DNA of 64,000 nucleotides from Candidatus Woesearchaeota archaeon. GTDB lineage: Archaea; Nanobdellota; Nanobdellia; Woesearchaeales; GW2011-AR9. This document shows, in pieces, positions 33,692-63,261 of the stretch; the stretch's first letter is position 1, and every line of letters starts with the position of its first letter. Location of the stretch: contig JABHRR010000040.1 in the NCBI GenBank assembly GCA_018670095.1, positions 7,331-71,330 of the forward strand, read 5' to 3'. The notes below the pieces were generated by a model, which was not told the origin of the DNA, did no database searches, and saw only the letters and a list, made by a program, of their open reading frames with translations. The position numbers and the translations under genes are program-made.

Positions 33692-35041
33692 TTACCACCA
33701 ATTTCGCATTAAATAACTGGAGATATGGTTAATAATGATGTCTCTATTTTTCTCTTTATTCAATGTTTTTATCTTTAAATCATAATTAAACTTGTTAAAA
33801 ATGGCCATTTGTCGATCTAACTCAGAAACAGATTCTTCTGGCCTTCTCTCATGAAGGGTCTGAGCAGAATTGTATAAGTAAATAGAAATTGTTGGCTTTG
33901 GGAATAAGCCAAGTAATATCCTTTTAAACCAAAAAGGAACATTTTCCATTAAAATTATATCAGAACAATAACGATCTGTAATTACTATATTCTTATTAAA
34001 CCTTTTTGGAAAAATTCTGAACCAGTATCGTAAAAATAGGTCTAAACTGAAAACTGGAGCCGCTAAAGTGTATAATATCTTTCTTTTAATTTTTCCATTC
34101 AAACTTTTTTTATTTGTATTATTAGGATTACTTTTAGCAATTTCAGAAACTAATGTTTTAGGATCTGGCCGAATTCCGTCATTTATTTTTTCTGCACGTT
34201 TGTATTTTCTTCCAATTAAACTAATAGGAAGAATATGATCTCTCCCTCTTCCAGTATAAACTAAAGAGGTGTTTTTTCCCGAATCTCTGAGAAAAACATT
34301 TAGATGATTGACAAGAGTAGACTTTCCTGAACCATCTGGGCCAATAACACTAATTAAAGGTGCAATATTAAAAGGGTTCTTTCTTTGTTTCACCCAGCGA
34401 AAGAATAAAGCAATAAATATAGTTAAATGGTTCGGTTTTTTTAAAAGAAAGTAAGTAACTAAGTTTTTTGTTTTGATTTTATCAAACTGGTTATTTCTTA
34501 CTAAACAAATTAATTCTTTTGCGACTTTCTTATTAAAAATATTAGAAAGATGGTCATAAATATATTTATTATTCACACTATTAATTAATTCTAATAAAAT
34601 TCTTTGATATTTTTGTTTAAAGAATCTTTTTCCTAAGATTGAATGAACCAAAAGCATTACAAAAGTATTGTCATTGTTTGGGACATTAAAAAATTCTTTT
34701 TTGAGTCTATTTCCAAGAATTATCTTCTCATCCAAATAACAAATATCATTCCAATGAACCCCTCCAACCTGAATATCAAAACTAACTTTTTTAAGATTAA
34801 TTAATTTAAAAAAAGCTTTGTGTTTTAATGAGAATTGTTGTGTTCTCTCTTCGAAACCATTCTCAATTAGAATTTTTCTCATCTTTTCATAATCTTTTTT
34901 AGAAACAACAGTATCCAAACTTTCAATATCGCTTGGTTTTCCCCCATTTAACAAAAATTCATAATTTCTTAGAATACAATAAGAAATACTTTCTCCTTCA
35001 AATTCTTTTAGTACAGTTTTGATAAATTCTATTCGTTCCAT
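33692..35041 (-). CDS. two-domain protein of unknown function: N-terminal conserved domain + thymidylate-kinase-like P-loop kinase domain (paralog of the 12071..13510 protein)
   Basis: Walker A GPDGSGKST and DRY (IVITDRYCSD) motifs. The N-domain aligns with the 12071 protein and has an SDIESLD acidic cluster suggesting a Pol-beta/LicD-like nucleotidyltransferase fold. Confidence 0.5.
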   Translation of the reverse strand: MERIEFIKTVLKEFEGESISYCILRNYEFLLNGGKPSDIESLDTVVSKKDYEKMRKILIENGFEERTQQFSLKHKAFFKLINLKKVSFDIQVGGVHWNDICYLDEKIILGNRLKKEFFNVPNNDNTFVMLLVHSILGKRFFKQKYQRILLELINSVNNKYIYDHLSNIFNKKVAKELICLVRNNQFDKIKTKNLVTYFLLKKPNHLTIFIALFFRWVKQRKNPFNIAPLISVIGPDGSGKSTLVNHLNVFLRDSGKNTSLVYTGRGRDHILPISLIGRKYKRAEKINDGIRPDPKTLVSEIAKSNPNNTNKKSLNGKIKRKILYTLAAPVFSLDLFLRYWFRIFPKRFNKNIVITDRYCSDIILMENVPFWFKRILLGLFPKPTISIYLYNSAQTLHERRPEESVSELDRQMAIFNKFNYDLKIKTLNKEKNRDIIINHISSYLMRNWW

Positions 35042-48136: not shown

Positions 48137-50092
48137 TTACTTAACTGTTAAAGCAATAAATACCCCCTCTTTCTGATAAACAGGTTCAAATAAACCGGAA
48201 TTAATAAAGTCATTATACTTTTCCTGAAGTACGCCCAAGGATTTTTCTTCCCCGACTTCTTTTTTGAAAAATTTCAAGTCGTTCTTTATACTTAATAACA
48301 GATATTTATAATCTTTACTTTTTAAGAACCCATGAAGTTCTTTTGCACTTACATTAATAATCTTTTTTCTGAGTTCAATCTCTTCTTGACACCAATTACA
48401 ACTATATTTCCCAAACCCAACAGCAATTTTTGGTCTTGAAATCATAAAAACTTTTTCATTAACTGGAATTGAATTAAACCAAACACCATACTCAAAAGCC
48501 TCTTGAGGACTATTAAAGAAACTTGAAGTGGGCCAAACAGTAGTGTTATGTTGGATTTTGTAAGTAGCAGAAGTAAAAAAAATGCTAAAAATAATAATTA
48601 GAAGAATAAAAAACCTAATCACTTTTTTCTTACTAAAGAAATCTTTAATGAAGAAAGCACCTTCGGTCGAAACAATTGCAACTGGAATTGCTAATAACAT
48701 CCAAACCCTAAATGCACCTTTAGCAACTGAAAAAGGAAAAGTTATTCCATTAACTCCCCAAAAAGTATATATTAACCAAAATAAAATAATGCAAGCCCAC
48801 GCATTTCTCTTTTTAACAATTGAAGTTTTATACTTCCAAAGCAAATAAATTACACCAACTAAAACTAAAAGACTAATTACTATCCCGATTCCTATTGGAT
48901 TATTAATCATGTTCTCACTTTTTGCAATCATAAAATCTTTCAATGTGTAAGCACGTGAAGCAGAACCTCCGGGATTAACAACTGCAGAAATAGCATTAAC
49001 AATAAAAGATTTTGAGGGGGGAGGCAATGGGGCCCCGGTAATTGTAACAGAAGGAGCAGCGCCAAGTATCCTATAAGAAAAATAATAAGTTAAAAATCCA
49101 AATCTCCCATATTTAAATAACATTGATCCAAACCAAAATAAAGAGATACCAATCCCACCAAAAATAGCACTAAAATGGAAAAATAATATTTTCCGATTAG
49201 CAATAGATAAAATAATAACGTAAATAAAAATAAGGGTTGTTAATTTAATTGGTTGAGAAAAATTTTGTGAAACCCATAGCCCAGCAACCAATAAAGCAGA
49301 AATAACCCACCATCTTTTATCATGTTTGATTCTTTCAAATGCATACATTGTCGGGAAAAATAAAGTAACAATAAATGAATGTGCCCAAATAAAATGGCTA
49401 AGATAACATGGAATTGCAGCTAAAACAAAGGTTGCGAAAAGTGCTTTATTACGATTCCCTACAAATTGCCAGGCAAAGAAAAAGAAAAAAATGAAACCTA
49501 AAGAGATTATTAAAGCATTAAAAAATTTCATAGTCCAGGTTAAATCTGGAGAAGTTTGATGTAAAACTCCTAAGAACACATCATAAGCGGGCGGATAAGG
49601 ATCCAAATAAGACAATACTGGTTCTAATCTTTCTGAATCTTTTGGAGGTGGACCATAAGCAGTCTTTTCAATAGAAACATATTTAATTCCTTCTGAATGG
49701 CCCCAAGGATCTTCATTTTCTAAATAAGGGTAACTAAAAGCACCTTTTGCGTACATATAAAAAGAAGCGAAGAAAATTAATAAAACAATCACAATAATCA
49801 AATTTGATTTGGTTAACTTTAATTTTGGTAATCTTAAATTGCCTGCCTTTACTTTCTTAATCAAATCATAAATAGGAACGATTAAACTTAAAATTAAAAA
49901 TATTTTCCAATCTAATGGAACTCGAAAAAAATTAAGAATGATTGATAATATTGCGAAAATACCTAAACCAATCCCCACATTCATCAAATTTCTTTCTAAT
50001 GCATTTTCAGATTGTTTTACGAAATAGGTAACTGTAAAACCTAATCCCCAAGCATACAAGAAAAATAAAATAATTGTTATTATGCTAACCAT
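48137..50092 (-). CDS. large polytopic membrane protein, GT-C-like glycosyltransferase candidate, no. 2
   Basis: 651 aa, more than 12 TM, acidic ENEDPWGH in an early loop. No WWDYG motif, so not an STT3/AglB oligosaccharyltransferase. Confidence 0.35.
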   Translation of the reverse strand: MVSIITIILFFLYAWGLGFTVTYFVKQSENALERNLMNVGIGLGIFAILSIILNFFRVPLDWKIFLILSLIVPIYDLIKKVKAGNLRLPKLKLTKSNLIIVIVLLIFFASFYMYAKGAFSYPYLENEDPWGHSEGIKYVSIEKTAYGPPPKDSERLEPVLSYLDPYPPAYDVFLGVLHQTSPDLTWTMKFFNALIISLGFIFFFFFAWQFVGNRNKALFATFVLAAIPCYLSHFIWAHSFIVTLFFPTMYAFERIKHDKRWWVISALLVAGLWVSQNFSQPIKLTTLIFIYVIILSIANRKILFFHFSAIFGGIGISLFWFGSMLFKYGRFGFLTYYFSYRILGAAPSVTITGAPLPPPSKSFIVNAISAVVNPGGSASRAYTLKDFMIAKSENMINNPIGIGIVISLLVLVGVIYLLWKYKTSIVKKRNAWACIILFWLIYTFWGVNGITFPFSVAKGAFRVWMLLAIPVAIVSTEGAFFIKDFFSKKKVIRFFILLIIIFSIFFTSATYKIQHNTTVWPTSSFFNSPQEAFEYGVWFNSIPVNEKVFMISRPKIAVGFGKYSCNWCQEEIELRKKIINVSAKELHGFLKSKDYKYLLLSIKNDLKFFKKEVGEEKSLGVLQEKYNDFINSGLFEPVYQKEGVFIALTVK

Positions 50093-50173: not shown

Positions 50174-51643
50174 TCAAATTTTGGAATTATAATAATATAA
50201 ATCTAATTCTTTATAACTTTCCGAATAAATTAAATTATACTTATCTTTCAATAACTTAACGTAATAATCACCCGTTTTTATATTTCTTGAAGAAATAAGC
50301 CAAAATTCTTTTTTCTGATTTAATAAACTAAATAACTGAGACTCATTTATTTTAATTAATTCCCTTTTATTTTCCCAAGTAAGCTTAATCTGGTCATATC
50401 CCCTATACAATTCAGTATCCCAATAATAATCGAACAAAAGAACATTAGAACCAGAACGATCAAATAAAATTAAAGGTTTACTTGAAGAATGTTCTTTAAT
50501 AGTGATTACTGCTTCATCCCAGGGGGCTTTGGTAGTTTCACCATAATATAGGGTTAGAGTAAAAAAGTTAAAAATTAAGATTAAAAAAACAATTATTATT
50601 TGAGTTCTCTTTAATTTTAATAGGCTTATTACTTTTGCAACTAAAACATAAAAGAAGGGAATAATAAAAAAAGAATGTCTTACTAAAGCAAAAGATCTTG
50701 TAATTGTATCCATTAAAAATAAATGAATTATTCCAATGAATGCTAAAGAAACAAATGTAACCCAAATTATAGTATTATTTTTAGGCATTTTAAATGAATA
50801 TTTTCTAAACAAAACAAGAATGCCGATTGTAAATAATAGAAGTAAAATTAACGGAAGTAAATAAAAACCAACACCCAGATTACTTAAAAAAACTGGCACA
50901 CCCCTTAAAACTAAACTTTCTTGTAAAATGGGATGACGAATCATTGTTTGAATAAATAATATTTGTAATCCGGGAATAAAGAAAATGATTGAAATTATTG
51001 CCGAAGAAAAGTGATTTTTTAAATTCAGGTGAGATTTGTGTTCCCGGTAATAAAAAAATAAAATTAAAGAATGGAAGATGATTACAAATAAAGCCATGTA
51101 GTTAGTATACAGCAGTATGGCATTTACCAATGAATAACCAAACAGAAAATAAATTTTCTTTCTTTTGTTGAGAGGAGTTTGAGATAATAATATAAATAAA
51201 TAAGTTGAAAGCAAAACTAAAAACCCAAACAAAGCATAAGGCCTTGCTTCTTGAGCATAAACAATTTGTAACATTGTTGTTGAGAAAATTAAAGCACTAA
51301 TTAGACCTACTTTTTTGTTAAAAACTTTTGCCCCTAAAAGATAAATTAAAATCACTGATAAAGAGTCAAAGAATGCTGATAAAAAACGTAAAGAGAACTC
51401 ACTAGTTCCAAATAAAGATGCCCAATACTTTAAGGTTATAAAATAACCAGGAGGCATTAATTCAGTGTAAATCACAGAATCAATTAACCCTTTATAATTT
51501 TCTTTCTGAGTATGAATTAAAGAAACCATCTCATCTGTCCATAAAGATTCTGTACTTAAATCATAAAAACGTAAGGTAGCACCTAAAATTACAATTAGAA
51601 ATAAAATCAAATAAACTTTTTTCTTATTTTTTTCCAAATTCAT
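50174..51643 (-). CDS. GT-C membrane glycosyltransferase (PMT_2/ArnT-like), no. 3
   Basis: LRFYDLSTESLWTDEM acidic first-loop motif; YWASLFGTSEFSLRFLSAFFDSLSVILIYLL. Confidence 0.65.
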   Translation of the reverse strand: MNLEKNKKKVYLILFLIVILGATLRFYDLSTESLWTDEMVSLIHTQKENYKGLIDSVIYTELMPPGYFITLKYWASLFGTSEFSLRFLSAFFDSLSVILIYLLGAKVFNKKVGLISALIFSTTMLQIVYAQEARPYALFGFLVLLSTYLFILLSQTPLNKRKKIYFLFGYSLVNAILLYTNYMALFVIIFHSLILFFYYREHKSHLNLKNHFSSAIISIIFFIPGLQILFIQTMIRHPILQESLVLRGVPVFLSNLGVGFYLLPLILLLLFTIGILVLFRKYSFKMPKNNTIIWVTFVSLAFIGIIHLFLMDTITRSFALVRHSFFIIPFFYVLVAKVISLLKLKRTQIIIVFLILIFNFFTLTLYYGETTKAPWDEAVITIKEHSSSKPLILFDRSGSNVLLFDYYWDTELYRGYDQIKLTWENKRELIKINESQLFSLLNQKKEFWLISSRNIKTGDYYVKLLKDKYNLIYSESYKELDLYYYNSKI

Positions 51644-51663
51644 GGTTCACCTTTTTGTACGCA

Positions 51664-52509
51664 TTACATATATTTAAAAAAATCTTTAAAAGTTATTAAC
51701 TTATTTCCTTTTCTCTTTAACTGACTAAAATCTTCTTTGGTAGGCATCCTAGTCATCGTGGCTTTTTCTTCATCTTGTTTAAATGAGATTAGTTCATTAT
51801 CACCATTATGATTAACATTAGCATAATTATTGATAAACTCATTTAACATAAAACCAAATGATTGCGCTAATTTATGATGGAGTTCATACATGGATATGTT
51901 TTGATTATAATCGAACTTCTTTTGAAAAATAATATTACCAGTATCTAATCCGGCCTCCATAAAATGAATAGTTACCCCATATTGCTGATCTCCATTAAAT
52001 AGATACCAAAAATATTGAGCGGCACCCCTATATTCTGGAAGATAAGAACCATGAGCATTAATCAACTTATTGCCAAGAGTTTCAAAAACGTTCTTTCTTA
52101 AAATTTGGGCTACCAAACAAAGCACATAATTGGGATTTAATTCTTTAACGTTATTTAAAAAATCATTATCACTAAGATTGTTTGTTTTAATTATAGGGAT
52201 ATTATATTGACTAGCTAAGTCTTCAATAGTCTTAGCAGAATCATTTTGATACTTTTTTGTTTTTGTTAATTTATGACCTAGCAAGAGATAGTTATAAACT
52301 TTTGATTCCAATAATTTGTAAAAGAAAAAACTAAATGAAGATTTTTTTGTAAGTTTATAGGCAACTTTTAGTTGATCAGTAAATGATTCCCCTTTAAATT
52401 GACTAGCAAGGACAATTGCTTTGAGTCTATCTGAGTTATTTATTAAGACTTCTCTTGTAGCCACTATAGAAGCCATTGTATTCTGAGTGAAAACGATAAT
52501 ATCTTTCAT
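51664..52509 (-). CDS. formyltransferase-family protein (sugar N-formyltransferase / ArnA-FT / Fmt N-domain-like)
   Basis: NAHGSYLPEYRGAAQYFW and GVTIHFMEAGLDTGNII match the N10-formyl-THF binding and catalytic motifs. Confidence 0.65.
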   Translation of the reverse strand: MKDIIVFTQNTMASIVATREVLINNSDRLKAIVLASQFKGESFTDQLKVAYKLTKKSSFSFFFYKLLESKVYNYLLLGHKLTKTKKYQNDSAKTIEDLASQYNIPIIKTNNLSDNDFLNNVKELNPNYVLCLVAQILRKNVFETLGNKLINAHGSYLPEYRGAAQYFWYLFNGDQQYGVTIHFMEAGLDTGNIIFQKKFDYNQNISMYELHHKLAQSFGFMLNEFINNYANVNHNGDNELISFKQDEEKATMTRMPTKEDFSQLKRKGNKLITFKDFFKYM

Positions 52510-52542
52510 CTTTTGTTTATCAAATGATAACTTTTGTAAAAA

Positions 52543-53331
52543 TTAAATCTTTTTAAATCTCAGTTCAATTATTCTTTTCAAATATAACATCCCATACTTG
52601 AAAAGGCCAGATAAAGTATCAGCAGTTTTTGATTGTCCTGCCCTTCTATCAACAAAAGGATATCCTACCTCTTTGATTTTGTATCCTTTCTTTCCTGCAG
52701 TATAAAGAAATTCAATACAATATTCTCCATAAGCAGAGTCAGAAAGAGTTATTTTCTCAAGGACCTCTTTTTTTGCAGCAATAAAACCACTATCATAATC
52801 CAACACATTAAAGTTAAGGACGATATTAGTAAAGACGTTGATAAATCTACTTGATACAACCCTTAACAAAGGCCGTTTATCTTTACCACCTTTAGCATAC
52901 CTTGAACCAACAACAACATCGTAATGATCAAATTTCTGTAACATTCGCGGGATTAATTCTGGAGGCATAGATTGATCTGCATCCATCCAAACAACATATT
53001 TGCCCTTTGCTTCTTTAATAGCATTTGAGATTGATTTGACTAAACCTCGATCTTCTAATCTTCTGATTACTTTCACATCAAAAGAGTTTAAATCTTCTGC
53101 AATTTTCCAAGTACCATCTGGACTATTATCATCAACAACAATAATCTCTTTAGAATGATTAACTAAAGCTTGTTGTGTTCTTTGAATTAATGGGATTATG
53201 TTTTCTGCTTCGTTATATGTTGGAAATATAACTGAAACCTCAATTTCTGAATTACTGATATCTTTTCCCATATTTTTTACCATATCTGTTTCTATTGCTT
53301 TCCCTATTGTCTTTTTTATTATTTTTTCCAT
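52543..53331 (-). CDS. GT2 polyprenyl-phosphate hexose synthase (ArnC/DPM1-like, soluble form)
   Basis: VSVIFPTYNE ... IIVVDDNSPD ... WMDADQ. Paralog of the 43653..44381 gene. Confidence 0.75.
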   Translation of the reverse strand: MEKIIKKTIGKAIETDMVKNMGKDISNSEIEVSVIFPTYNEAENIIPLIQRTQQALVNHSKEIIVVDDNSPDGTWKIAEDLNSFDVKVIRRLEDRGLVKSISNAIKEAKGKYVVWMDADQSMPPELIPRMLQKFDHYDVVVGSRYAKGGKDKRPLLRVVSSRFINVFTNIVLNFNVLDYDSGFIAAKKEVLEKITLSDSAYGEYCIEFLYTAGKKGYKIKEVGYPFVDRRAGQSKTADTLSGLFKYGMLYLKRIIELRFKKI

Positions 53332-53424
53332 TTCTTTAAAGAAACTCTAATCTTTTATTTTATATACTTTTTGGAAGAGTGATTAACATATTAAAGTTAA
53401 TGTATCACAAGTTTTTAAAGTGAT

Positions 53425-54897
53425 TTGGTTTCATTTAGGTTAAGAATGGAAGAATTAAGAAAGAATATTAAGTTGGAAAGGGATTCTATGAGTAATAATG
53501 AAGTAATATTAAAAAGTAAACAGATTAAAGAAAGAATATTGACTTTTTCTTTGTTTAATCAATCTAATTCTATAATGTTTTATTACCAAAAAGGAAATGA
53601 AGTTAACTTAAATGGTTTAATGAGTTCACAATTAAATCATCAAAAAAGAAAGATAATTCTTCCGAAAACAAATAAAGATGATTTTTCAATGAAAAGTTAT
53701 CAAATAAATAATTTAAGTGAAGATTTGGAGAATGGCGCATTTGGAATCATGGAACCAAAAAAAGATTGTTTAGAAATTAACAAAGAACAAATTGACCTTG
53801 TTTTTGTTCCTGGGGTTGCTTTTGACTTAGCTGGAAATAGATTGGGTCATGGGTTAGGTTATTACGATCGATTTCTTGAAGATTTTAATGGGATTAAAGT
53901 GGGGGTTGCTTACGATTTTCAGATAGTTGATTCCATAAAAGTTAAAAGCCATGATGTGCCAATGGATTATGTCATAACAGAAAAGAGGGTCATTAAAACT
54001 AATCGAGAACAAAATAAAATGGGACAATTATTATCAGGAAAAGAATTATCTGAAAAAATATTAACGGCACTTAAAGAAAAAGTAGAAATACTAGAAAATA
54101 AACCAACTTTAGCGATTGTTTCTGTAGGAGAAGATCTAGCATCTAAGATTTATATCAAAAAAAAACTTAAAATTGCAGAAAAAATTGGTGTAAAAGCGCG
54201 ACATTACAAACTAAACGAAGAAACAAAAGAAGAAGAATTGTTAGGTTTGATTGAGAAGCTAAATAAGGATGATAATGTTGATGGATTTATTGTTCAATTA
54301 CCTTTACCAAAACAGATTAATGAAAATAAAGTAATTAATAGTATTAATCCCAGAAAAGATGTGGATGGTTTCCATCCAATAAATATGGGTAAAATATTCT
54401 TAGAGATCTTTGAAGAAGAAACAGATATGATTCCCGCTACGCCTTACGGGATAATGAAAATTATTGAATATTATAATCTTGATTTAGAAGGGAAAAAAGT
54501 TGTTATTGTTGGCAAAAGTAATATTGTGGGTAAACCAATTGCCCAATTGATGCTGATGAAGAATGCCACAGTAACTATTGCCCATAAAAAAACTAATAAT
54601 CTTGCTGAACATACAAAGGATGCAGACATAATTGTTGTTGCCGTTGGAAAAGAAAAACTTATTACTGCTGACATGGTCAAAGAAGGTGTGATAGTGATTG
54701 ATGTGGGGATGAACCGAACTGAAGAAGGTAAGATTGTTGGAGATGTTGATTTTGAGAATGTTAAAGAGAAAGCATCACTCATCACTCCAGTTCCTGGAGG
54801 AGTAGGACCAATGACGGTTACGATGTTACTTTATAATCTTGTAAAGACTAAAATAACAATGAGAAAAGTATCTAATGAAGAAGATAAATCTTTATAA
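53425..54897 (+). CDS. fusion: 5-formyltetrahydrofolate cyclo-ligase + methylene-THF dehydrogenase/methenyl-THF cyclohydrolase (FolD)
   Basis: N-terminal DLVFVPGVAFDLAGNRLGHGLGYYDRF (MTHFS signature). C-terminal FolD motifs ASKIYIKKK, DGFIVQLPLP, VVIVGKSNIVGKP, PGGVGPMT. Confidence 0.8.
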   Translation: MVSFRLRMEELRKNIKLERDSMSNNEVILKSKQIKERILTFSLFNQSNSIMFYYQKGNEVNLNGLMSSQLNHQKRKIILPKTNKDDFSMKSYQINNLSEDLENGAFGIMEPKKDCLEINKEQIDLVFVPGVAFDLAGNRLGHGLGYYDRFLEDFNGIKVGVAYDFQIVDSIKVKSHDVPMDYVITEKRVIKTNREQNKMGQLLSGKELSEKILTALKEKVEILENKPTLAIVSVGEDLASKIYIKKKLKIAEKIGVKARHYKLNEETKEEELLGLIEKLNKDDNVDGFIVQLPLPKQINENKVINSINPRKDVDGFHPINMGKIFLEIFEEETDMIPATPYGIMKIIEYYNLDLEGKKVVIVGKSNIVGKPIAQLMLMKNATVTIAHKKTNNLAEHTKDADIIVVAVGKEKLITADMVKEGVIVIDVGMNRTEEGKIVGDVDFENVKEKASLITPVPGGVGPMTVTMLLYNLVKTKITMRKVSNEEDKSL

Positions 54898-54938
54898 CTA
54901 AATTAAATGGATTAAAATGGAATCATAAATATTAAAAA

Positions 54939-55826
54939 GTGAAAACAATGAAAATAATAATATCCATACCGGCATATAACGAAGAGAAAACATTACCTCG
55001 AGTTTTAGAAGAGATTAAAGAAGTAATGAGTAATACAAATTATAATTATGAGTTCTTGATTCTTGATGATGGTTCAAAAGATAAAACAGTAGAAGTAGCC
55101 GAGAAACAAGGAGCAATAGTAGTTTCTAACAGAAGAAATTTGGGTTTAGCGGAAACTTTCAAAAAAGAAATGACTGAATGTCTAAAAAGAAAAGCAGAGA
55201 TTATTGTTCATACTGATGCGGATGGACAATATCATCCTCAACACATTCCGGAACTGATTAAAAAAGTTGAAGAGGGTCACGATTTAGTTTTAGGAAGTAG
55301 ATTTAAAAGAAATATCAGACATATGCCATTTCTCAAAAAGATTGGAAATATGGCTTTTGCTAAAGTGATTAGTTCTTTAACCAAAGTTAAAATTACGGAT
55401 TCCACAACTGGTTATCGTGCTTTCACAGCAGAAGTTGCTAGAAACATTAGTTTTATTAATACATTTACTTACACTCAAGAACAAATTATTAAAGCTGCCA
55501 AACAAGGTTTTAAAATAACTGAAGTCCCGATAGTTTGTAGAAAAACTAGAGAAAGTAGATTATTTAAAAATCCGTTTCAATATGCAATTAAAGCTTGGAT
55601 AAATATATTCAGAATTTATCGTGATTATCAACCATTAAAATTTTTTGGGCAGATTGGAGGAATTTTCTTTTTATTAGGATTCCTATTGGGAATTTACATT
55701 ACTATTACTTTTATTCTTACAGGGGTCGTTGGTGGAATTCCTAGAGTGATTCTAAGTATGCTTTTGATGTTAACGGGAATTCAGATAATTTTGTTTGGAT
55801 TTTTTGCGGATATGTTACATAAATGA
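54939..55826 (+). CDS. GT2 polyprenyl-phosphate sugar synthase with C-terminal TM helices (GtrB-like)
   Basis: ISIPAYNEE ... LILDDGSKD ... two C-terminal TM helices. Confidence 0.7.
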   Translation: MKTMKIIISIPAYNEEKTLPRVLEEIKEVMSNTNYNYEFLILDDGSKDKTVEVAEKQGAIVVSNRRNLGLAETFKKEMTECLKRKAEIIVHTDADGQYHPQHIPELIKKVEEGHDLVLGSRFKRNIRHMPFLKKIGNMAFAKVISSLTKVKITDSTTGYRAFTAEVARNISFINTFTYTQEQIIKAAKQGFKITEVPIVCRKTRESRLFKNPFQYAIKAWINIFRIYRDYQPLKFFGQIGGIFFLLGFLLGIYITITFILTGVVGGIPRVILSMLLMLTGIQIILFGFFADMLHK

Positions 55827-55832: not shown

Positions 55833-57317
55833 TTATTTCTTTTTAAAAAAACTTAGAACTAAATTTAAATCTTTCTTTTTAATTTCATTAAGAATAAGTA
55901 ATAAACAAAAATAAATTACTAATAATAAGACAAATTCTAGAAGTAAAATGATTCCAGTACCTTTCCAAAAGAAACCCAGCAAGAGAATAATTAGTGAAGA
56001 AAAAGAAATCTTTAAAGTAGATCTCCAAGAAACAAAATTACCAAATTTCTTATGAATATAAAACCCAGCAAGAGACATACAAACAAAAGAGCTAGCAACA
56101 GAAGAAATTGCGGCACCCACCATTCCAAACAAAGGAATTAAGAAAAAACTTAAAGGGAATAATATAAATAAAGTGATAAGGCCAATAAATGTTTCTATTC
56201 GTGGTTTACCATAACCCATCAGAACTGCAGTGAAAATAGTAAAAATTGCCCAGAATGTAGTATGAATCATCAGGATACCAAGAATTGGTCCAGCAGGAGA
56301 GTATTCTAGAGGATAAAAAATGTTTAAAAAACGACTTGCTGAAGAAATAATTAAAGCAGATAAAGGAAATAAAGCCATTACCAAATAACGTAAAGATTGA
56401 GTGATATATCTTTTTGCTAATAGTTTGTTGTTATTAGATAAAGCTTTAGATATTGAAGGCATAAGAGTAAAAGAAAGAGAACCAAAAATAAAAATAGGAA
56501 AATTAGATAATGTTGTTGCAGCAGTATAATAACCCGCAAAGATATTCTTTGTAAGGAATGATTTAATCAATAACACATTAACATTCTTAATTACCGTAAA
56601 AACAAGGGCAGAAAGAGTAATGGGGATTGAAAATTTTAAAAAGTCTTTGAGAGCATTATTTCTAGAGGTTATAACTTTTGAATGATTTGTAATGGGAGGA
56701 GAAGGGTTATTTTTAATGAGATTATATTTCCTATTGAAAAGAATTATACAAAAAAACAAAGAGATTATGATTGCTAAAAAATATCCCAAAAGAACACCAA
56801 ATATTTCAAAACCAAAGAAAACAAAAAAGATTACTAATGTTGCTTTAAGAATTGAGTGAACTGCACCCATAAAAGCTTGTTCTTTAAACATCCTCAGCCC
56901 ATTTAGGTAACCATTCCAATAAAGAGAAAAAATAGTGAAAAAGACTACTAATAAAAAAGTCAGAATAACGTAAAATGTTAAATCGCCATCTTTTAGTAAA
57001 CGGGATATTAATTTAGAAGATGCCACCATCAGAAGAAAAAAGAGTGAAGAAACGAGAAGTTGTAATCTAAATGAAGATTTGATTAACAACATAAGATCAC
57101 CTTTCTTTTCAGAAATAAATTTTGAAGAAGTTTTAACAAATCCTGCACTCAGAAAAGCCCCCCCCATAGTGTAAATTGACAAAAGAATCCCATAAATCCC
57201 ATAACTATTTGGATTTAATAACTTAGCTAATAAAATATGAAGTGAATAATTTGATAACAAAATAAATATTCCAGCAATTGTTAAATATACAGTTCCTTTA
57301 CCCATTACTTTTTTCAT
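55833..57317 (-). CDS. wzx: Wzx-type flippase / polysaccharide biosynthesis membrane protein (PST family), second copy
   Basis: 494 aa, about 12-14 TM. Confidence 0.55.
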   Translation of the reverse strand: MKKVMGKGTVYLTIAGIFILLSNYSLHILLAKLLNPNSYGIYGILLSIYTMGGAFLSAGFVKTSSKFISEKKGDLMLLIKSSFRLQLLVSSLFFLLMVASSKLISRLLKDGDLTFYVILTFLLVVFFTIFSLYWNGYLNGLRMFKEQAFMGAVHSILKATLVIFFVFFGFEIFGVLLGYFLAIIISLFFCIILFNRKYNLIKNNPSPPITNHSKVITSRNNALKDFLKFSIPITLSALVFTVIKNVNVLLIKSFLTKNIFAGYYTAATTLSNFPIFIFGSLSFTLMPSISKALSNNNKLLAKRYITQSLRYLVMALFPLSALIISSASRFLNIFYPLEYSPAGPILGILMIHTTFWAIFTIFTAVLMGYGKPRIETFIGLITLFILFPLSFFLIPLFGMVGAAISSVASSFVCMSLAGFYIHKKFGNFVSWRSTLKISFSSLIILLLGFFWKGTGIILLLEFVLLLVIYFCLLLILNEIKKKDLNLVLSFFKKK

Positions 57318-57384: not shown

Positions 57385-58122
57385 TTACTTTTCTAATCTT
57401 TCATATTTAAATATGATCCAAAATTGATAAAATAATTTTCTTACCAGTTCCAATGATAACGCAAGAGCATAAACCCACAAGATAATTTCTGGAAACCCAA
57501 ATAAAACACCAAAAAACATTAAGTTAAAAGGATTATCCATTAACAAAAAATCAGAAATTATTGACAATAAACCCCTCTTCTGACTTTTTAAAGAGATATT
57601 TTCCCCAAAAATAAGTTTGGTCATTTCATTTCTCTGATTAATATTACCATACCAGGCCAAATTAATTGTTAATGCTTTAGATAATAAGAATGTAAATGTT
57701 GCAATTCCAGAAGCAATAAAGATTATTAAATCACCAGTCTGATTATAAATCCCTAAAGCTAAAGCAATCAATAATAATGAATTACATAAATAATGACCAA
57801 TATAGTCAAGATACATCCCATTTAAAGAGTAATGTTTTCTATACCTTGCTACAATTCCATCAACACCATCAATAATGGAAGCTAATTGAAAAATTAAAAG
57901 TGAAAAAACTGTAACTAAATATCCTCCTTTAGCAATAAAGAATAAAGTAATTAGTTTAATTAAAATCCACAAAATAGTAATTTGATTAGGAGTGAAAGGT
58001 AAGTATAAAAATATCTTTGCAGGATAAAAAGCTAGATAATCACACATGGGATTAAGAAAACCATTTGTACTCTTTTTTGCATATAATTTCCTTAACTCTT
58101 TGATTTTAGGTATTTTATTCAT
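57385..58122 (-). CDS. CDP-alcohol phosphatidyltransferase (DIPPS/AIPS-like)
   Basis: IDGVDGIVARYRKHYSLNGMYLDYIGHYL fits the CDP-OH-P-transferase motif; about 6 TM. Confidence 0.7.
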   Translation of the reverse strand: MNKIPKIKELRKLYAKKSTNGFLNPMCDYLAFYPAKIFLYLPFTPNQITILWILIKLITLFFIAKGGYLVTVFSLLIFQLASIIDGVDGIVARYRKHYSLNGMYLDYIGHYLCNSLLLIALALGIYNQTGDLIIFIASGIATFTFLLSKALTINLAWYGNINQRNEMTKLIFGENISLKSQKRGLLSIISDFLLMDNPFNLMFFGVLFGFPEIILWVYALALSLELVRKLFYQFWIIFKYERLEK

Positions 58123-58291
58123 TTTTTATTTCTGATATTAAAACTTGCTTTAATTAAAGTAAAATTAAAAGGGGGTTTTTATACTTTACTAAACCAAAAT
58201 TAAGTTAAGTAAATAAAAATAATTAGATTTAGAACATAAAGCCAAAAGATATAAAAAGAGAGGTAACTGTTTAAAAAAACAATAAAACAAA

Positions 58292-59002
58292 ATGAAAGCT
58301 GTAATACTTGCCGCAGGAATGGGAACAAGAATAAATCATAATAGAGAAACTATTCCAAAACCGCTTTATGAGGTAAATAATAAATGTTTGATTGAACATG
58401 TTATTGAGAATATAAGAAAAGCGGGTATTACTGAGTTTGTAGTTGTTATTGGCTTTATGGCAGAAAAAATTAAAGAGAGATTAGGTGACGGAACAAAATA
58501 TGGTGTAAAAATAGAATATACTTTTAATCCAGAATATGAAAAGCCAGTAGGATTATCGGTTCTTTGTTCGGAGAAATATATTAATGAACCATTTATTTTA
58601 TCTATGTCTGACCATATCATGGAATTTGAAGGTTTAAAAAAAATTATTGATTACCCTCTGGAGAAAGATTCTTGTGCATTACTGGTTGATAAAAAGATTG
58701 ACACCATCTTTTGGCTAGATGATGCAGCAAAAGTTAAACTAGAGGAAAATAAAATAAAAGGTGTAAACAAAAAGTTTGAATCATTTGATGCTATCGATTG
58801 TGGGGTATTTAAGCATTCACCAATTATTTTCAATGAGATTAGAAGAATGATTCATGAACCAGATAGCATTAGTGCGGCCGTAAGTAATTTCTGTAAACAA
58901 GGAAAAATGTTTGCTGTAGATATTGAAGAATACAAATGGGTAGATATTGATGAGTATGAAGAATTAGAAGTTGCCAGAGAAATATTTAAAAATATAAACT
59001 AA
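58292..59002 (+). CDS. nucleotidyltransferase (IPCT/LicC-like; CTP:inositol-1-phosphate cytidylyltransferase candidate)
   Basis: MKAVILAAGMGTRI...IPKPL and C-terminal WVDIDEYEELEVAREIF. Divergently paired with the CDP-alcohol phosphatidyltransferase gene. Confidence 0.6.
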   Translation: MKAVILAAGMGTRINHNRETIPKPLYEVNNKCLIEHVIENIRKAGITEFVVVIGFMAEKIKERLGDGTKYGVKIEYTFNPEYEKPVGLSVLCSEKYINEPFILSMSDHIMEFEGLKKIIDYPLEKDSCALLVDKKIDTIFWLDDAAKVKLEENKIKGVNKKFESFDAIDCGVFKHSPIIFNEIRRMIHEPDSISAAVSNFCKQGKMFAVDIEEYKWVDIDEYEELEVAREIFKNIN

Positions 59003-59016
59003 AATATTTAATTTAT

Positions 59017-59955
59017 TCATTTGTTCTGATTTAAAAATTCTTGAACTTTAATTATTTCATCTATTCTTCTCTTATTACTCTTCAAAGGCAACCAAGTATT
59101 CATTTTAATACAAGCTGCATGGATGGCATAATCCATTGATTTTTGGACACTTTTTCCATCCATTCTTTGAGAGAGATAAACTGCAGAAAAAGTGCTGGTT
59201 AAACCATTTGGATTTACTAAGTCTCCAAATCTTGGAAAAGTTGTAGAATAAATTTTATTTTTTACATAAATGGAATAACCTTTTTCACCCTGACTTAAAA
59301 TAATTTCTTTAGGACCAAAACTAGAAACTTCTTGCAAAGCTTGTCTAAGATCTTCTTTTTTTGAAAGTGATTTCAAATGTTTCTCAGAAAGAATTAAATA
59401 ATTAACTTTACTTAAATATTTTTTTGCTTCTTTCCATTCTTTCTCTTCGATTTCAGTTTCATAAAAATTTCTAAAAAAACCTTGAGCATAAAGACAGACA
59501 TTCTTATTTCTTTTATAAATATAAGATAATGTTTCTAAAGAGATATCAAAAGGAGATTGTGGACCAACAAATATTAAATCTGCTTCATTTAAATTTGAAT
59601 TGCCAAGTTCTAAGATATTAACTTTTTTGTCAGAAGAAACATGATTCAGAATTTTTTGTTTCCTTTCAAAAATGTTTTTTGAAGAATAAATATTTTCAAG
59701 TAAAAAAGTATTACCCACATATATTGGATTAATAATAATCTTCTGGTGAATATCCTTTAACAAATAATTTTTATCTTTAGATAACAAAGGGATGACTGTG
59801 ACTTGATGATCAAATTTGTTAAAAGCTTCTCCTGCATAATAAACAGAACCACCTAAAGCATATCTCCGATTATTATCAAGTGAAATTAGATCTTTAGTTA
59901 ATGAACCAATTAAAATTATTTTTGCCATTTTTTGTTTTTCACCGTTTGTACCCAA
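59017..59955 (-). CDS. PfkB/ribokinase-family carbohydrate kinase (degenerate ATP-site motif)
   Basis: N-terminal ALGGSVYYAGEAF (GG motif). The C-terminal NxxGAGD motif is degenerate (NPNGLTSTFSAV). Confidence 0.5.
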   Translation of the reverse strand: MGTNGEKQKMAKIILIGSLTKDLISLDNNRRYALGGSVYYAGEAFNKFDHQVTVIPLLSKDKNYLLKDIHQKIIINPIYVGNTFLLENIYSSKNIFERKQKILNHVSSDKKVNILELGNSNLNEADLIFVGPQSPFDISLETLSYIYKRNKNVCLYAQGFFRNFYETEIEEKEWKEAKKYLSKVNYLILSEKHLKSLSKKEDLRQALQEVSSFGPKEIILSQGEKGYSIYVKNKIYSTTFPRFGDLVNPNGLTSTFSAVYLSQRMDGKSVQKSMDYAIHAACIKMNTWLPLKSNKRRIDEIIKVQEFLNQNK

Positions 59956-60212
59956 CGATGAACTGTTGACTTAGAAAGATTTATTTTTTCTTTCTCATTG
60001 ACTAATGAAACTATTTTTGCGTAGGATTTGCCTTGACAAAAATGATCAAGAACTTCTTGAATTATATAAAAAGAATAAATTGAGTTTAAATTATTTTTGA
60101 TTGTGAAAAAAGAATTACATTGTTTACATTGATAAACTTGTTTTTGAGAATATTTATTTGTTCTCATCCCATGTTTAATAAAATTATCAAAACCACACTT
60201 TTTACAAGTCAT
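59916..60212 (-). mobile_element. IS1 InsA-like zinc-ribbon + HTH protein (possible IS remnant or small regulator)
   Basis: CKKCG-x-KHG-x-QKQVYQCKQCNSFF matches the InsA C-x2-C...Q-x-Y-x-C-x2-C-x3-F ribbon, followed by a helix-turn-helix (STVHRWV). No cognate catalytic transposase ORF nearby. Confidence 0.35.
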
Positions 60213-60339
60213 AACAAATTAAAAAGAAGTCTTATTATATAAACCTAATGAAAATAGAACAAATAATCAAAACGCTTTTAAATGATTTTAGTTGTTCTTC
60301 AATTCAGGCTTAAAAAGTCAGAAAACGAGGTGTTTAAAA

Positions 60340-61578
60340 ATGACAGAAGAAAATAAATTTGAAATTAAAATTGCAATCATTGGTATAGGTAATTGTGCTA
60401 GTAGTTTGGTACAAGGGATTCATTATTATCATGCTGCTGAAGGAAAAGATTATGTCCCTGGCTTAATGCATACTGAAATTGGACCTTACAAAATTAGAAA
60501 TATTAAAGTTGTAGCTGCTTTTGATGTTGATAAAAGAAAAGTTGGTAAAGATGTATCAGAAGCAATTTTTTCTGAACCAAATTGCACACCAAAATTTTTC
60601 CCAAATGTTCCACATCTAAATGCACAGGTTTATATGGCCCCCATAATGGATGGAGTTTCAGAATTAATGCAAACTGGAGAAGAAGAAGGATATCCTGTTT
60701 TTAAACCAGCAAATATTGAACCAGTAAATGTAGCTGAAAAATTACGAACTCACAAAGTGGATGTGCTTGTTAATTATCTTCCCGTGGGATCAAGAAAAGC
60801 AACTGCTTTTTATGCACAAGCAGCAATTGATGCTGGATGTGCTTTTGTTAACGCTATGCCAAGATTTATTGCTTCAGACCCTGAATGGAGTAAAAAGTTT
60901 GAAGAAGCTGGTCTACCAGTTATTGGTGATGATATCAAATCTCAGTTTGGTGCTACATTTTCACACAGAGTCTTAATTCAAGCATTAGTTGATAGAGGAG
61001 TTAAAGTCTTAACGACCGAGCAATATAATTATGGTGGAAATACCGACTTTAGAAATATGATGGACCGTGAACGGCTTAAAGACAAACTAGAAAGTAAAAC
61101 AGACTCAATTGAGAAACGATTACCTTACAAGTTGCAAAAAACATTATATGCAGGTCCGGGAACAAGTCCGGAAGGAGAAGGAGATAAGGGGCATGGTTTT
61201 GCAAAAGGTCAGGGAGACAATAAAATTGCCGAAATTATGTTTGAGGGTACAGGATTTGGAGGAGTTCCAGTAAAAGGTCATTTAAAAGTAGATTGTTTTG
61301 ATTCACCTAACTCTGGTGGAATTGTAATTGATGCAATTAGATGTGCACAGTTAGCAAGAGATATGGGTTGTAAAGGAACAATTAACTCTGCTTCCGCTTG
61401 GTTCTTTAAACACCCTTTACTAGACATACCTGATGCACAAGCCCTACAAGAATTAGAAGCATTTATTGGCTCTTATCAGGAACGAATTGCTGAAGTAAAA
61501 GTAGATGATAAAGAAGAAAGTAAGATTGACAAAGTGGAAGAGCCGGTAGAAGAACCAGCAGAGATTTCTAACATTTAA
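60340..61578 (+). CDS. myo-inositol-1-phosphate synthase (archaeal-type MIPS)
   Basis: IAIIGIGNCASSLVQGIHYY N-terminal motif. GAGGTG Shine-Dalgarno lies 8 nt upstream of ATG 60340 (the ORF track opens at 60292). Length about 410 aa. Confidence 0.75.
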   Translation: MTEENKFEIKIAIIGIGNCASSLVQGIHYYHAAEGKDYVPGLMHTEIGPYKIRNIKVVAAFDVDKRKVGKDVSEAIFSEPNCTPKFFPNVPHLNAQVYMAPIMDGVSELMQTGEEEGYPVFKPANIEPVNVAEKLRTHKVDVLVNYLPVGSRKATAFYAQAAIDAGCAFVNAMPRFIASDPEWSKKFEEAGLPVIGDDIKSQFGATFSHRVLIQALVDRGVKVLTTEQYNYGGNTDFRNMMDRERLKDKLESKTDSIEKRLPYKLQKTLYAGPGTSPEGEGDKGHGFAKGQGDNKIAEIMFEGTGFGGVPVKGHLKVDCFDSPNSGGIVIDAIRCAQLARDMGCKGTINSASAWFFKHPLLDIPDAQALQELEAFIGSYQERIAEVKVDDKEESKIDKVEEPVEEPAEISNI

Positions 61579-61712: not shown

Positions 61713-62483
61713 ATGAAAAAATATGGTGAAATGAACGTTAATAAATATCGTGAAATGAAAGATAGTAGGTTCAAAAAAGGCTTAAGAATTATAAAGAGAG
61801 AAGGATTACTTTCGTTTACTTATCGGTTTTTCTATTATCTTAATCGTTGTTTTTTAAGAATTGCTAGTCCAGTGGTTATTAATTTGATCCCCAGGAGATA
61901 CTTTTATTATAAAAACAAGAGATTATCTTATTTCTTACATAAAAAAAATCTTACTTGGACAAATGAAAGAGCAATTGAAGTCCCTATTATAATGGATTAT
62001 GTTAAGAATTCTGTTACAAAAAAAATATTGGAAGTGGGAGCAGTATTACCTCATTATTATCCAAAGTTTAAACACGATGTTTTAGATAAATTTGAGAAAA
62101 GCAAAGGGATTATTAACGAAGATGTTGTTAATTTTAAGCCAAAAGAGAGATATGATTTAATTATAAGTATTTCTACTTTAGAACATGTAGGATTTGATGA
62201 TGATATAAAAGATTCGGAAGGAATTATTAAAGCATTAAATAACTTAAAAGAAAATTGTTTAAAAAAGAATGGTAAAATGATCATAACTTTACCCCTCAAT
62301 TACAATAAATATGTTGACAAATATATTTACACCAATCAACTTAGTTTTGATGAAGAACATTTCTTTAAGAGAGTTGGTTTTAATAAATGGAAAGAAACTT
62401 CTAAAGAAAAAGTTAAACAACTTAAATATAATTCTGAACGTCTTAATGCGAATGCAATTCTAGTTGGTTTAATAGAAAAATAA
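61713..62483 (+). CDS. class I SAM-dependent methyltransferase
   Basis: ILEVGAVLP motif I-like and DLIISISTLEHV motif. Confidence 0.5.
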   Translation: MKKYGEMNVNKYREMKDSRFKKGLRIIKREGLLSFTYRFFYYLNRCFLRIASPVVINLIPRRYFYYKNKRLSYFLHKKNLTWTNERAIEVPIIMDYVKNSVTKKILEVGAVLPHYYPKFKHDVLDKFEKSKGIINEDVVNFKPKERYDLIISISTLEHVGFDDDIKDSEGIIKALNNLKENCLKKNGKMIITLPLNYNKYVDKYIYTNQLSFDEEHFFKRVGFNKWKETSKEKVKQLKYNSERLNANAILVGLIEK

Positions 62484-62562: not shown

Positions 62563-63261
62563 ATGCAAACAGTAATATTATGTGGAGGGAAAGGTACAAG
62601 GCTGCGAGAATATACAGAAATTATTCCAAAGCCAATGGTAGAAATTGGAGGAAAACCAATACTTTGGCACTTGATGAGATTATATGCTAGTTATGGGTTT
62701 AAAGAGTTCATACTTTGTTTAGGATATAAAGGAGAAATAATTAGAGATTACTTTAAAGATAACAAAGAATGGAACATCACTTTTGTTGATACTGGACAAG
62801 AAACAAATACTGGTGGCAGAATTAAAAAAATAGAAGAGTATCTAAAAGAAGATTTGTTTTTTGCCACTTATGCTGATGGTCTTGCAAACGTAAATTTACA
62901 AAATCTTCTTAACCACCATAATGAAAAACAGAAAATAGCCACTCTTACAACAGTTAATCCACTTTCTCAATTTGGAATAATAGATATTGATGATGATCAC
63001 ACCATACTTAAATTTAAAGAAAAACCTCTTATGAACCAATGGATAAATGGTGGTTTTTTTGTTTTTAACAAAGAAATATTCAAATATCTTGATGAAGATT
63101 CAGTTTTGGAAAAAGTACCTTTTGAAAAACTTGCAGAAGACAGACAAATATCGGCGTATAAATTCAAAGGTTTTTGGAAATGTATGGATACATTTAAAGA
63201 TATGCAAGAACTAAATGAATTATATGCAAAAGAAAATTCTCCCTGGGAGGTATTGGAATGA
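62563..63261 (+). CDS. rfbF: glucose-1-phosphate cytidylyltransferase
   Basis: [36 protein letters not shown]; about 232 aa; followed, with a 4-nt overlap, by a CDP-glucose 4,6-dehydratase gene. Confidence 0.8.

Follow-up and report, generated by a model that had tools for sequence, protein, structure and literature searches.

The 64,000-nucleotide stretch of 'Candidatus Woesearchaeota' DNA analysed here (the window) carries a cluster of genes predicted to make CDP-inositol and possibly to use it for decorating a surface glycan. On the minus strand lies a CDP-alcohol phosphotransferase (CDP-AP) with six transmembrane helices (57385..58122; PF01066, motif and predicted model), which belongs to a clade with an unusual histidine and is called the His-variant transferase below. 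Directly downstream of it on the same strand is a Wzx/MOP-family flippase (55833..57317; Pfam). The plus strand carries a nucleotidyltransferase (NTase) resembling CTP:inositol-1-phosphate cytidylyltransferase (IPCT), a predicted CDP-inositol synthase (58292..59002; NTP_transferase, NF041135 and PDB sequence matches). It also carries myo-inositol-1-phosphate (inositol-3-phosphate) synthase (MIPS; 60340..61578, in an open reading frame (ORF) listed from 60292/60340; Pfam, NCBIfam and PDB sequence matches) and a 256-aa companion with the class I S-adenosylmethionine (SAM) methyltransferase fold (61713..62483; Pfam and fold search). A protein of the PfkB/ribokinase fold and a small ORF, both on the minus strand, lie between the NTase and MIPS. 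The four ORFs that an earlier note on this DNA had read as MIPS, a PfkB-family kinase, an IPCT-like NTase and a CDP-alcohol phosphatidyltransferase are all found in the ORF listing at the positions given there, and Pfam and NCBIfam place them in the families named.

The MIPS gene product matches Inos-1-P_synth (PF01658) at 80.2 bits (cutoff 27) and TIGR03450 over its full length at 386 bits. Because the latter score falls below the equivalog cutoff of 638, the protein is not considered a mycothiol-type orthologue. Its top PDB sequence match is Ino1 of M. tuberculosis (1gr0, 342 bits, residues 5–376). The comparison set consists of ten independent loci, each with a transferase orthologue of 50–64% identity, and MIPS orthologues of 45–55% identity are found in L015/24, L017, L018, L020, L022, L023 and L029. 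The predicted assignment to the MIPS family is firm. For the NTase, the top NCBIfam match is the IPCT half of the IPCT/DIPPS model NF041135 (120 bits over positions 1–216, against 99 for the next family); the cutoff of this model, 580, is out of reach for a single-domain NTase because it refers to a two-domain protein. The top PDB sequence matches, both end to end, are the IPCT of A. fulgidus (2xme, 65.9 bits) and IPCT-DIPPS (4mnd). An IPCT-DIPPS-MIPS-like operon of an Aeropyrum metagenome-assembled genome (MAG; L025), in which roles were given from model scores, served as a yardstick for model scores and as a reference in the tree described below, and its stand-alone NTase reaches 86 bits on the same half-model. 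This apparent di-myo-inositol phosphate (DIP) operon is laid out as three separate genes for IPCT, DIPPS and MIPS (L025 9187..11896), and an AIPS-like gene lies 5 kb from it (16733..17314; 175 bits, just under the cutoff of 180).

In the window the NTase and MIPS genes are 1.3 kb apart. In four MAGs (L017, L018, L022 and L024) an NTase orthologue of 59–64% identity is fused N-terminally and in frame to MIPS, giving single ORFs of 606–618 aa. The fused ORFs of L024 and L022 lie at 7962..9797 and 6741..8597. Since the fusion partner is the producer of inositol-3-phosphate, there is hardly any doubt as to which substrate the NTase takes. The prediction that MIPS and the NTase together make CDP-inositol, first made in the earlier note, is well supported by the fusions and by IPCT as the best match of the NTase; the outcome that the earlier note had named as refuting, an NTase that groups with sugar-1-phosphate nucleotidyltransferases, did not arise.

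The third member of the module departs further from known enzymes. The His-variant transferase matches CDP-OH_P_transf (PF01066) at 34.6 bits (gathering cutoff 22). On curated models it scores 45.6 bits for AIPS (NF040950; cutoff 180), 37.7 for the DIPPS half and 23.9 for PIPS, while on the same models the Aeropyrum DIPPS reaches 100 bits and the Aeropyrum AIPS 175. The CDP-AP signature, D1xxD2G1xxAR...G2xxxD3xxxD4, contains eight residues that have been called absolutely conserved, of which D4 is the likely catalytic base; a D4N change in PIPS nearly abolishes activity (PMC4634129). Seven of the eight residues are kept here, and the eighth is His110, which aligns with D4 of both AF2299 and AfDIPPS. 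Across an alignment of 25 orthologues the motif reads DGVDGxxAR-x8-G-x3-D-x3-H, and His110 replaces the fourth Asp in all 25. Of the columns of this alignment 36 are invariant, among them His110 and six further residues of the signature. The cytidine-binding motif P(D/N)xx(T/S) is retained as PNQIT.

An exhaustive profile search of 1.84 billion cluster representatives returned 1213 proteins at E<1e-10. Among the top 150 representatives, 110 have a recognisable motif, with His at D4 in 91 and Asp in two. With His this frequent (91/110), the family is a large and conserved variant and not a gene in decay. In a neighbour-joining tree (103 core columns, 200 bootstraps) the family forms its own clade with 84% support, containing the window protein, bacterial members and one Asp-bearing sequence (P0045); the alignment is short and neighbour joining was the only method, so that the deeper branching is not settled by this tree. 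The clade stands apart from the DIPPSs, from AF2299 and from the single AIPS included, the grouping of DIPPS with AF2299 being itself weakly supported, and the window protein paired with AIPS in 0% of bootstraps. The AlphaFold2 model of the transferase has a pLDDT of 86, and as a predicted structure it ranks AF2299 first among fold matches (TM-score 0.66), followed by IPCT-DIPPS and then the PIPS structures. In AF2299 and DIPPS a small hydrophilic donor pocket fits CDP-glycerol and CDP-inositol (PMC4634129).

The description of this protein as 'DIPPS/AIPS-like' does not hold up in view of its scores (38–46 bits against cutoffs of 180–580), the His at D4 and its separate clade. The phylogeny that the earlier note had called for, here by neighbour joining, separates the protein from the DIPPSs and from the one AIPS included; it is not a generic phospholipid synthase, and the family as a whole is not inositol-specific either. 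Judged by its sequence, the window transferase is neither a DIPPS nor an AIPS, and belongs to a large uncharacterised clade.

The genomic context of the transferase is well conserved. In eight of the ten loci (the window, L015/24, L017, L018, L020, L022, L023 and L011/L029) both MIPS and the NTase are found within 12 kb of it. The remaining two, L013 and L021, lack MIPS and the NTase nearby, and L013 carries instead a second, degenerate CDP-AP beside a 37% identical NTase. Since the same gene set recurs around orthologues of only 50–64% identity in eight of ten loci, the clustering is not a matter of chance. The adjacent flippase scores 80.2 bits for Polysacc_synt (PF01943), 63.4 for Polysacc_synt_3 (PF13440) and 47.7 for MurJ (PF03023). 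A Wzx-like gene adjoins the transferase, or lies within a few kb of it, in L011, L013, L015/24, L017, L018, L019, L020 and L021; none was detected in L022, and L023 has a weak match only. The orientation of this gene varies, from tandem in the window to convergent and overlapping in L011 and L013. Its persistence beside the transferase despite these changes is counted in favour of a lipid-linked glycan as the acceptor.

The methyltransferase-fold companion also recurs: L017, L018, L023 and L029 have an orthologue next to the module, and further orthologues share long contigs with other transferase orthologues. It matches Methyltransf_23 weakly (22.8 bits), and a PDB sequence search with it returned only noise. 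Its AlphaFold2 model (pLDDT 92) retrieves SAM-dependent methyltransferases such as ToxA and NodS in Foldseek (E ~1e-6, with a TM-score of only ~0.4). Other recurrent neighbours in the orthologous loci are NodU-type carbamoyltransferase, SGNH/GDSL, sulfate-activation, sulfotransferase and methyltransferase genes, all of them glycan decorators. The related loci look to come from groundwater and various other environmental metagenomes. L022 bears a RIFCSPHIGHO2 isolate name, which we take to mean Rifle groundwater, and the source habitats look mesophilic. The conserved Wzx gene, the glycan-decorating neighbours and the mesophilic sources agree with the earlier note in favouring a surface glycan or lipid over a thermophile solute.

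Two further features of these neighbourhoods were observed. A NodU/CmcH-type carbamoyltransferase, an SGNH/GDSL protein and a 53-aa DUF5989 gene lie beside the transferase in L011 (5080..7996), L013 (4409..7479) and L015 (1184..5950); this trio is not found in the window, and the carbamoyltransferase and SGNH/GDSL neighbours suggest O-carbamoylated or O-acetylated glycans. In L013 (15661..16735), a few kb from a His-variant CDP-AP, a GATase/Peptidase_C26 gene lies beside a 949-aa fusion of CTP_transf_like, PPDK_N and PEP-utilizers domains. These genes resemble the Campylobacter O-methyl-phosphoramidate genes Cj1417/Cj1416/Cj1418.

The combination of MIPS, IPCT and a CDP-AP is the exact gene set for DIP, found as the operon IPCT-DIPPS-MIPS in the Aeropyrum MAG, and the nearest solved folds of the transferase are AF2299 and IPCT-DIPPS. 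The module could accordingly be read as making a soluble inositol phosphodiester, either DIP or a glycero-phospho-inositol-like solute, by means of a divergent DIPPS-like enzyme. This is quite improbable given the score of 37.7 bits on the DIPPS half-model where the Aeropyrum enzyme reaches 100, the His at D4, the separate clade (84% of bootstraps) and the mesophilic appearance of the sources. To our knowledge, DIP is confined to (hyper)thermophiles. Scans of the window, including its four long ORFs without Pfam matches but not 186..548 or ORFs of fewer than 100 aa, found no inositol-monophosphatase (Inositol_P) gene. A soluble product would also leave the conserved flippase, the methyltransferase and the glycan context unexplained.

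Distant members of the family offer a view of its wider role. The 84-sequence alignment was too divergent for a metagenome scan and a 15-sequence bacterial-type subset was used; because of this query, the 80 metagenome loci retrieved are biased toward distant members. P0158 is a transferase fused to a GINT1_N domain and flanked by a Wzx gene and an IspD-SDR fusion, the latter being presumably a TarI/TarJ-like CDP-ribitol synthase. Its GINT1_N domain recalls inositol-glycolipid biology and is not counted as evidence, as the function of the domain is not known. In P0211, from a flagellated bacterium, the gene order is SDR, TagD-like cytidylyltransferase, transferase, Wzx, GT2, GT2 and HAD (GT denoting glycosyltransferase families), and in P0074 a distant transferase is fused to a SAM methyltransferase. 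An IspD-SDR gene abuts the family member in L061, the members in L063 and L107 have TagD-like genes as neighbours, and IPCT-like or sugar-1-phosphate NTase genes are found near members in five further metagenome loci. Wzx adjoins the transferase in L030 and L031, again in varying orientation.

Among 60 immediate neighbours in the wider family, Pfam identifies GT2 (8), GT4 (5), Polysacc_synt (4), methyltransferases (4) and nucleotidyl- or cytidylyltransferases (~5), and the 25 commonest families include none for phospholipid synthesis. A panel tblastn search of the 80 loci found no MIPS beside distant members, and Wzx and nucleotidyltransferase matches were scattered. The absence of MIPS there implies that only the Nanoarchaeia clade has the inositol link; the link to Wzx is strong in the close orthologues and in the two sampled distant members, but not beyond them. 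The wider family looks like a set of CDP-polyol transferases, in each of which the adjacent activating enzyme determines the donor.

These neighbours bear on a second explanation, a Kennedy-type reaction in which CDP-inositol is joined directly to archaeol or diacylglycerol, giving archaetidyl- or phosphatidylinositol without a phosphorylated intermediate. The triad of MIPS, NTP transferase and CDP-alcohol phosphatidyltransferase is that of a putative inositol-lipid cluster described in bacteria by Heaver et al. (PMC9246714), and the transferase is an integral membrane CDP-AP. Such a route requires no phosphatase, and the module contains none; the window also lacks a CDP-archaeol synthase gene, which fits a donor other than CDP-archaeol. 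The lipid alcohol could be scavenged from the host, an attractive arrangement for lipid-scavenging, lipid-auxotrophic DPANN cells. However, the Bacteroides enzyme was retrieved with the full DX2DGX2AR...GX3DX3D pattern and so is not a His variant (PMC9246714). The His-variant family is paired with CDP-ribitol-synthase-like, TagD-like, Wzx, GT2 and GT4 genes rather than with lipid genes, and a phospholipid would not be expected to go with a Wzx flippase. The predicted model moreover has the six-helix core only, without the extra C-terminal transmembrane helices of eukaryotic CDP-APs, which may serve a bulkier hydrophobic acceptor (PMC4634129). The Kennedy-type reaction seems unlikely.

The window contains a second CDP-AP (10323..11015, plus strand; PF01066, 55.7 bits) with the canonical motif and Asp at D4. 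It scores 78.8 bits on the AIPS model (cutoff 180) and 66 bits on the DIPPS half, and its top PDB sequence match is AF2299 (81.8 bits). Its partner in the neighbour-joining tree is AF2299 in 46% of bootstraps and AIPS in 1.5%. The protein is not an evident AIPS on this evidence and tends to group with AF2299. As the earlier note had pointed out, the gene appears translationally coupled to a GT4 gene (11012..12037), and the overlap is real: the TGA stop of the one and the ATG of the other share 4 nt (ATGA). The GT4 protein has generic matches only. A role for the two as an AIPS and a PIG-A/PimA-like enzyme, together making a glycosyl-inositol lipid, was considered and found unsupported, given the AF2299 grouping and the generic GT4 matches.

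With this canonical enzyme present, CDP-inositol might be used by the second CDP-AP and its coupled GT4. The His-variant protein would then be a dead or regulatory paralogue, or would take another CDP donor, such as sugars derived from CDP-glucose. The position of the change is suggestive, as D4 is the described catalytic base and its replacement by Asn nearly abolishes PIPS activity (PMC4634129), and the second CDP-AP has both the full motif and the higher scores on inositol-related models. In addition, a glucose-1-phosphate cytidylyltransferase gene (62563..63261) lies 560 nt downstream of the inositol module. Against this, the 36 invariant columns argue for purifying selection on the active site of the His-variant transferase, and its gene is tightly linked to the NTase or NTase-MIPS gene in eight loci, whereas the canonical paralogue lies 47 kb away in the window. 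Family members elsewhere pair one-to-one with other cytidylyltransferases. These observations leave only a slight chance that the His-variant protein has no part in CDP-inositol transfer.

The favoured interpretation is that the module makes CDP-myo-inositol, transfers inositol phosphate onto a membrane-anchored acceptor and exports the product; as a complete chain, this is about as likely to be right as wrong. In the first step MIPS would convert glucose-6-phosphate to inositol-3-phosphate, and in the second the IPCT-like NTase would combine this with CTP to give CDP-inositol. The family assignment of MIPS stands behind the first step, and the second is strongly indicated. The His-variant transferase may then move inositol phosphate, at the cytoplasmic face of the membrane, to a hydroxyl group on a glycan linked to polyprenol or on the carrier itself, with His110 acting as general base in place of the usual Asp. 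The adjacent Wzx-type flippase would carry the product outward, where it would become part of a cell-surface glycan. The companion protein probably methylates inositol or CDP-activated inositol. Homology and gene fusion argue for the first two steps, linkage and fold suggest the donor in the third, and only the gene neighbourhood points to the acceptor and to export. The closest folds, AF2299 and DIPPS, are reported to prefer soluble CDP-alcohol donors (PMC4634129), and this is counted in favour of CDP-inositol.

Several observations weigh against transfer to a glycan. The His at D4 could mean altered chemistry or lost function, since even a D4N change nearly abolishes PIPS activity (PMC4634129); the 36 invariant columns, with His110 and six signature residues among them, argue that the transferase is functional. 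Its nearest folds, DIPPS and AF2299, are soluble-donor enzymes, and the acceptor of DIPPS is itself soluble. In the wider family Wzx was detected in a minority of loci only, many of which are short. We are not aware of any archaeal glycan described as bearing inositol phosphate. Those CDP-polyol transferases that are known to act on glycans fall into the TagF/TarL and fukutin families rather than into PF01066 (bioRxiv 10.64898/2026.02.12.704994). The assignment of the acceptor in the window is drawn from the recurrent Wzx and glycan-decorating genes described above. Another glycan-directed family of such transferases, LicD, likewise lies outside PF01066.

A broader version of the same idea extends to the whole clade. 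A large branch of PF01066, with His for the catalytic Asp, would place polyol phosphates on lipid-linked glycans before these are flipped by Wzx, and would not serve phospholipid or solute synthesis. The donor would be set by the neighbouring NTase gene, which is IPCT-like here and CDP-ribitol-synthase-like or TagD-like elsewhere, so that inositol phosphate would be transferred in Nanoarchaeia/Woesearchaeota and ribitol phosphate or glycerol phosphate in other lineages. This generalization is tentative and somewhat on the doubtful side.

The PfkB/ribokinase-fold protein (59017..59955 as an ORF; Pfam and PDB sequence matches) is an accessory to the module. Its start is probably the ATG at 59928, giving 59017..59928, because homologues begin with MAKI. 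Pfam PfkB is matched at 35 bits in the C-terminal half only. The top PDB sequence match is TM0415, a pyrophosphate (PPi)-dependent myo-inositol 1-kinase of Thermotoga maritima whose inositol ligands are D11, N78, Q141 and R145 (PMC5931981). The equivalents of these four residues (D22, N88, Q158 and R162) are invariant among the window protein and its close homologues, and the same four inositol contacts are shared with the myo-inositol kinases TM0415 and TK2285 (PMC5931981). Unlike TM0415, the window protein has lost the catalytic and donor sites. The GXGD motif reads G-L-T-S (G(L/V)TS across homologues), so that the catalytic Asp234 is replaced by Ser and the second Gly is also replaced. The NXXE (DxxE) Mg2+ motif reads S-E-K-H (S(E/D)K(H/Q) across homologues), and Ile, Pro and Leu stand at the positions of the PPi ligands K171, R229 and R232. 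All four close homologues (P0052–P0055) show the same replacements, and P0056, a 29% identical relative, keeps the PPi-type motif RTGRGD.

The earlier note was correct in describing the ATP motif of this protein as degenerate. Its further proposal, a myo-inositol kinase providing a salvage route, is not supported: catalytic Asp, Mg2+ motif and donor residues are all lost, and the gene is missing from most orthologous clusters, being present in three of the ten loci only (the window, L023 and L029). The protein is probably an inositol-binding derivative of an inositol kinase with no canonical kinase activity, i.e. a pseudokinase, and would act in the module as an accessory inositol-binding protein. 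The neighbouring 98-aa ORF (59916..60212, minus strand) has weak NCBIfam matches to Zn-binding and helix-turn-helix (HTH) regions of the IS1 type, so that it reads as a Zn-ribbon plus HTH protein like the N-terminus of the transposase InsA, and shares 13 nt with the probable start of the PfkB gene. The gene calls on the sister contigs L001, L002 and L004 include it, and it has zero matches in the related loci. Its membership of the module is doubtful, and it could be a small regulator or the remnant of an insertion sequence. A pairing of this ORF with the PfkB protein as regulators was dropped, as the ORF is not conserved in related loci.

The island in which the module lies has a G+C content of 26–35%, and profile scans with Pfam and NCBIfam assign almost all annotated genes of the 64-kb window to glycan synthesis or modification, which upholds the description of it as an AT-rich segment devoted to surface glycans. 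Homologues and syntenic MAG contigs carry the names 'Candidatus Nanoarchaeia' or Woesearchaeota. The transferases include several GT4 and GT2 genes and two GT-C enzymes of the PMT_2 family, and there are one GtrA-like protein and two Wzx-type flippases. Sugar genes are represented by NeuB, DegT aminotransferases and two GDP-mannose dehydratases, and modification genes by a sulfotransferase, a sulfate-activation fusion and formyl-, acetyl- and methyltransferases. Scans of the window for tRNAs and Rfam families returned zero matches.

Adjoining the flippase of the module is an Arn-like lipid-carrier aminosugar module (50174..55826), and the two modules are also syntenic in L002, L015, L018 and L020. 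The Arn-like module consists of a PMT_2 GT-C enzyme (50174..51643), a formyltransferase (51664..52509), a GT2 (52543..53331), a fusion of 5-formyl-THF cyclo-ligase and FolD (53425..54897) and an AglJ/ArnC-like GT2 (54939..55826). A second IPCT-like NTase (3880..4584, minus strand) adjoins the sulfotransferase at 3058..3879; it is 30% identical to the first and scores 74 bits on the IPCT half-model. In L013 (203..1658) a sulfotransferase is likewise followed by the degenerate CDP-AP, with motif ...YLEYVGL, and by the 37% identical IPCT-like NTase. The recurrence of an IPCT-like NTase beside a sulfotransferase may mark a second type of CDP-alcohol module.

A 931-aa fusion (7511..10306, plus strand) joins a pyruvate-kinase barrel to PUA_2, ATP-sulfurylase and APS-kinase domains, the pyruvate-kinase domain being unusual in a sulfate-activation enzyme. 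The same fusion of pyruvate kinase and sulfurylase is found in the related MAG locus L013 (11503..13758), beside an APS-kinase/CysQ-like fusion, and together with the sulfotransferase this enzyme points to sulfated glycans. Between the sulfotransferase/NTase pair on one side and the sulfate-activation gene on the other lies a phosphonate-type ABC transporter (4677..7280, minus strand; binding protein, ATPase and permease). A 682-aa fusion of CTP_transf_3 (CMP-sugar synthetase) and class-III aminotransferase (19991..22039, minus strand) and a NeuB-family synthase (29014..30105, minus strand) indicate a nonulosonic-acid pathway in this DPANN genome. Four long ORFs of 449–710 aa without a Pfam match (24656..26788, 31995..33392, 33692..35041 and 48137..50092) may be polymerases, ligases or surface proteins.

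The logic of the pathway, MIPS followed by IPCT and a CDP-AP, is already known. The DIP pathway (A. fulgidus AF0263, PDB 2xme/4mnd; NF041135 in Thermococcales) has the same first two steps and the same gene set. It resembles the module also in its six-helix CDP-AP, whose donor is most probably soluble CDP-inositol; the NTase has its best sequence match in IPCT, and the transferase its second-best fold match in DIPPS. In contrast to IPCT/DIPPS, the NTase here is fused to MIPS or stands alone, and is fused to the transferase in none of the loci seen. The His in place of the fourth Asp, the far lower model score, the different clade, the context of Wzx, methyltransferase and glycan genes, and the apparently mesophilic DPANN source set the two further apart. 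AF2299 (PDB 4o6m/4o6n/4q7c) is the best sequence and fold match of both CDP-APs of the window, with a six-helix core and juxtamembrane helix that are alike. Unlike the His variant, it has the canonical D4 as well as an extra cytoplasmic N-terminal domain. We know of no established physiological product for AF2299.

The alternative inositol-lipid cluster of Bacteroides vulgatus and Prevotella (BVU_RS13095/13105/13115), for which a CDP-inositol donor and a Kennedy-like step have been proposed only (Heaver et al. 2022, PMC9246714), similarly groups MIPS, an NTP transferase and a CDP-alcohol phosphatidyltransferase, and both it and the window module are biochemically uncharacterised. It differs from the module in its full D...D motif, its HAD hydrolase and its setting in bacterial sphingolipid and phosphatidylinositol synthesis, and has no Wzx link, His variant or NTase-MIPS fusion. 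The proposed reaction type, from a CDP-linked polyol or alcohol phosphate to a glycan hydroxyl, is that of TagF/TarL, fukutin/FKRP and FtaD, enzymes whose fold is unrelated to the window transferase and which lack the PF01066 signature. The Fta system of C. difficile also shares the combination of a cytidylyltransferase, a methyltransferase and a phosphotransferase, and its methyltransferase works on the CDP-activated intermediate. Literature on PF01066 enzymes in polysaccharide, Wzx, teichoic acid and DPANN inositol contexts yielded no description of a glycan-acting member, and the lipocone paper mentions the family only in passing. What appears to be new, judging from the sequences and with no description found in the literature searched, is the His-for-Asp clade, its placement in glycan clusters beside a flippase, the NTase-MIPS fusions and the kinase-dead relative of inositol kinases.

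Until now the links of CDP-inositol have been to DIP, a thermoprotective solute, and, as a hypothesis, to an alternative route by which bacteria make inositol lipids. With a conserved CDP-inositol module in DPANN archaea that are host-dependent and apparently mesophilic, inositol-phosphate chemistry would reach the surface glycans of archaea, and such a module would add a fourth, membrane-embedded family to the glycan polyol-phosphate transferases represented by TagF, LicD and fukutin. The invariant Asp-to-His change contradicts the rule of eight absolutely conserved residues in the superfamily. As single proteins taking glucose-6-phosphate and CTP to CDP-inositol, the NTase-MIPS fusions found in nature would make convenient catalysts, and the PfkB-derived protein is a candidate inositol-binding pseudokinase. 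If the broader reading of the clade is true, DPANN archaea would bear a teichoic-acid-like surface glycan decorated with phospho-inositol, supplied by a channelled MIPS-IPCT fusion.

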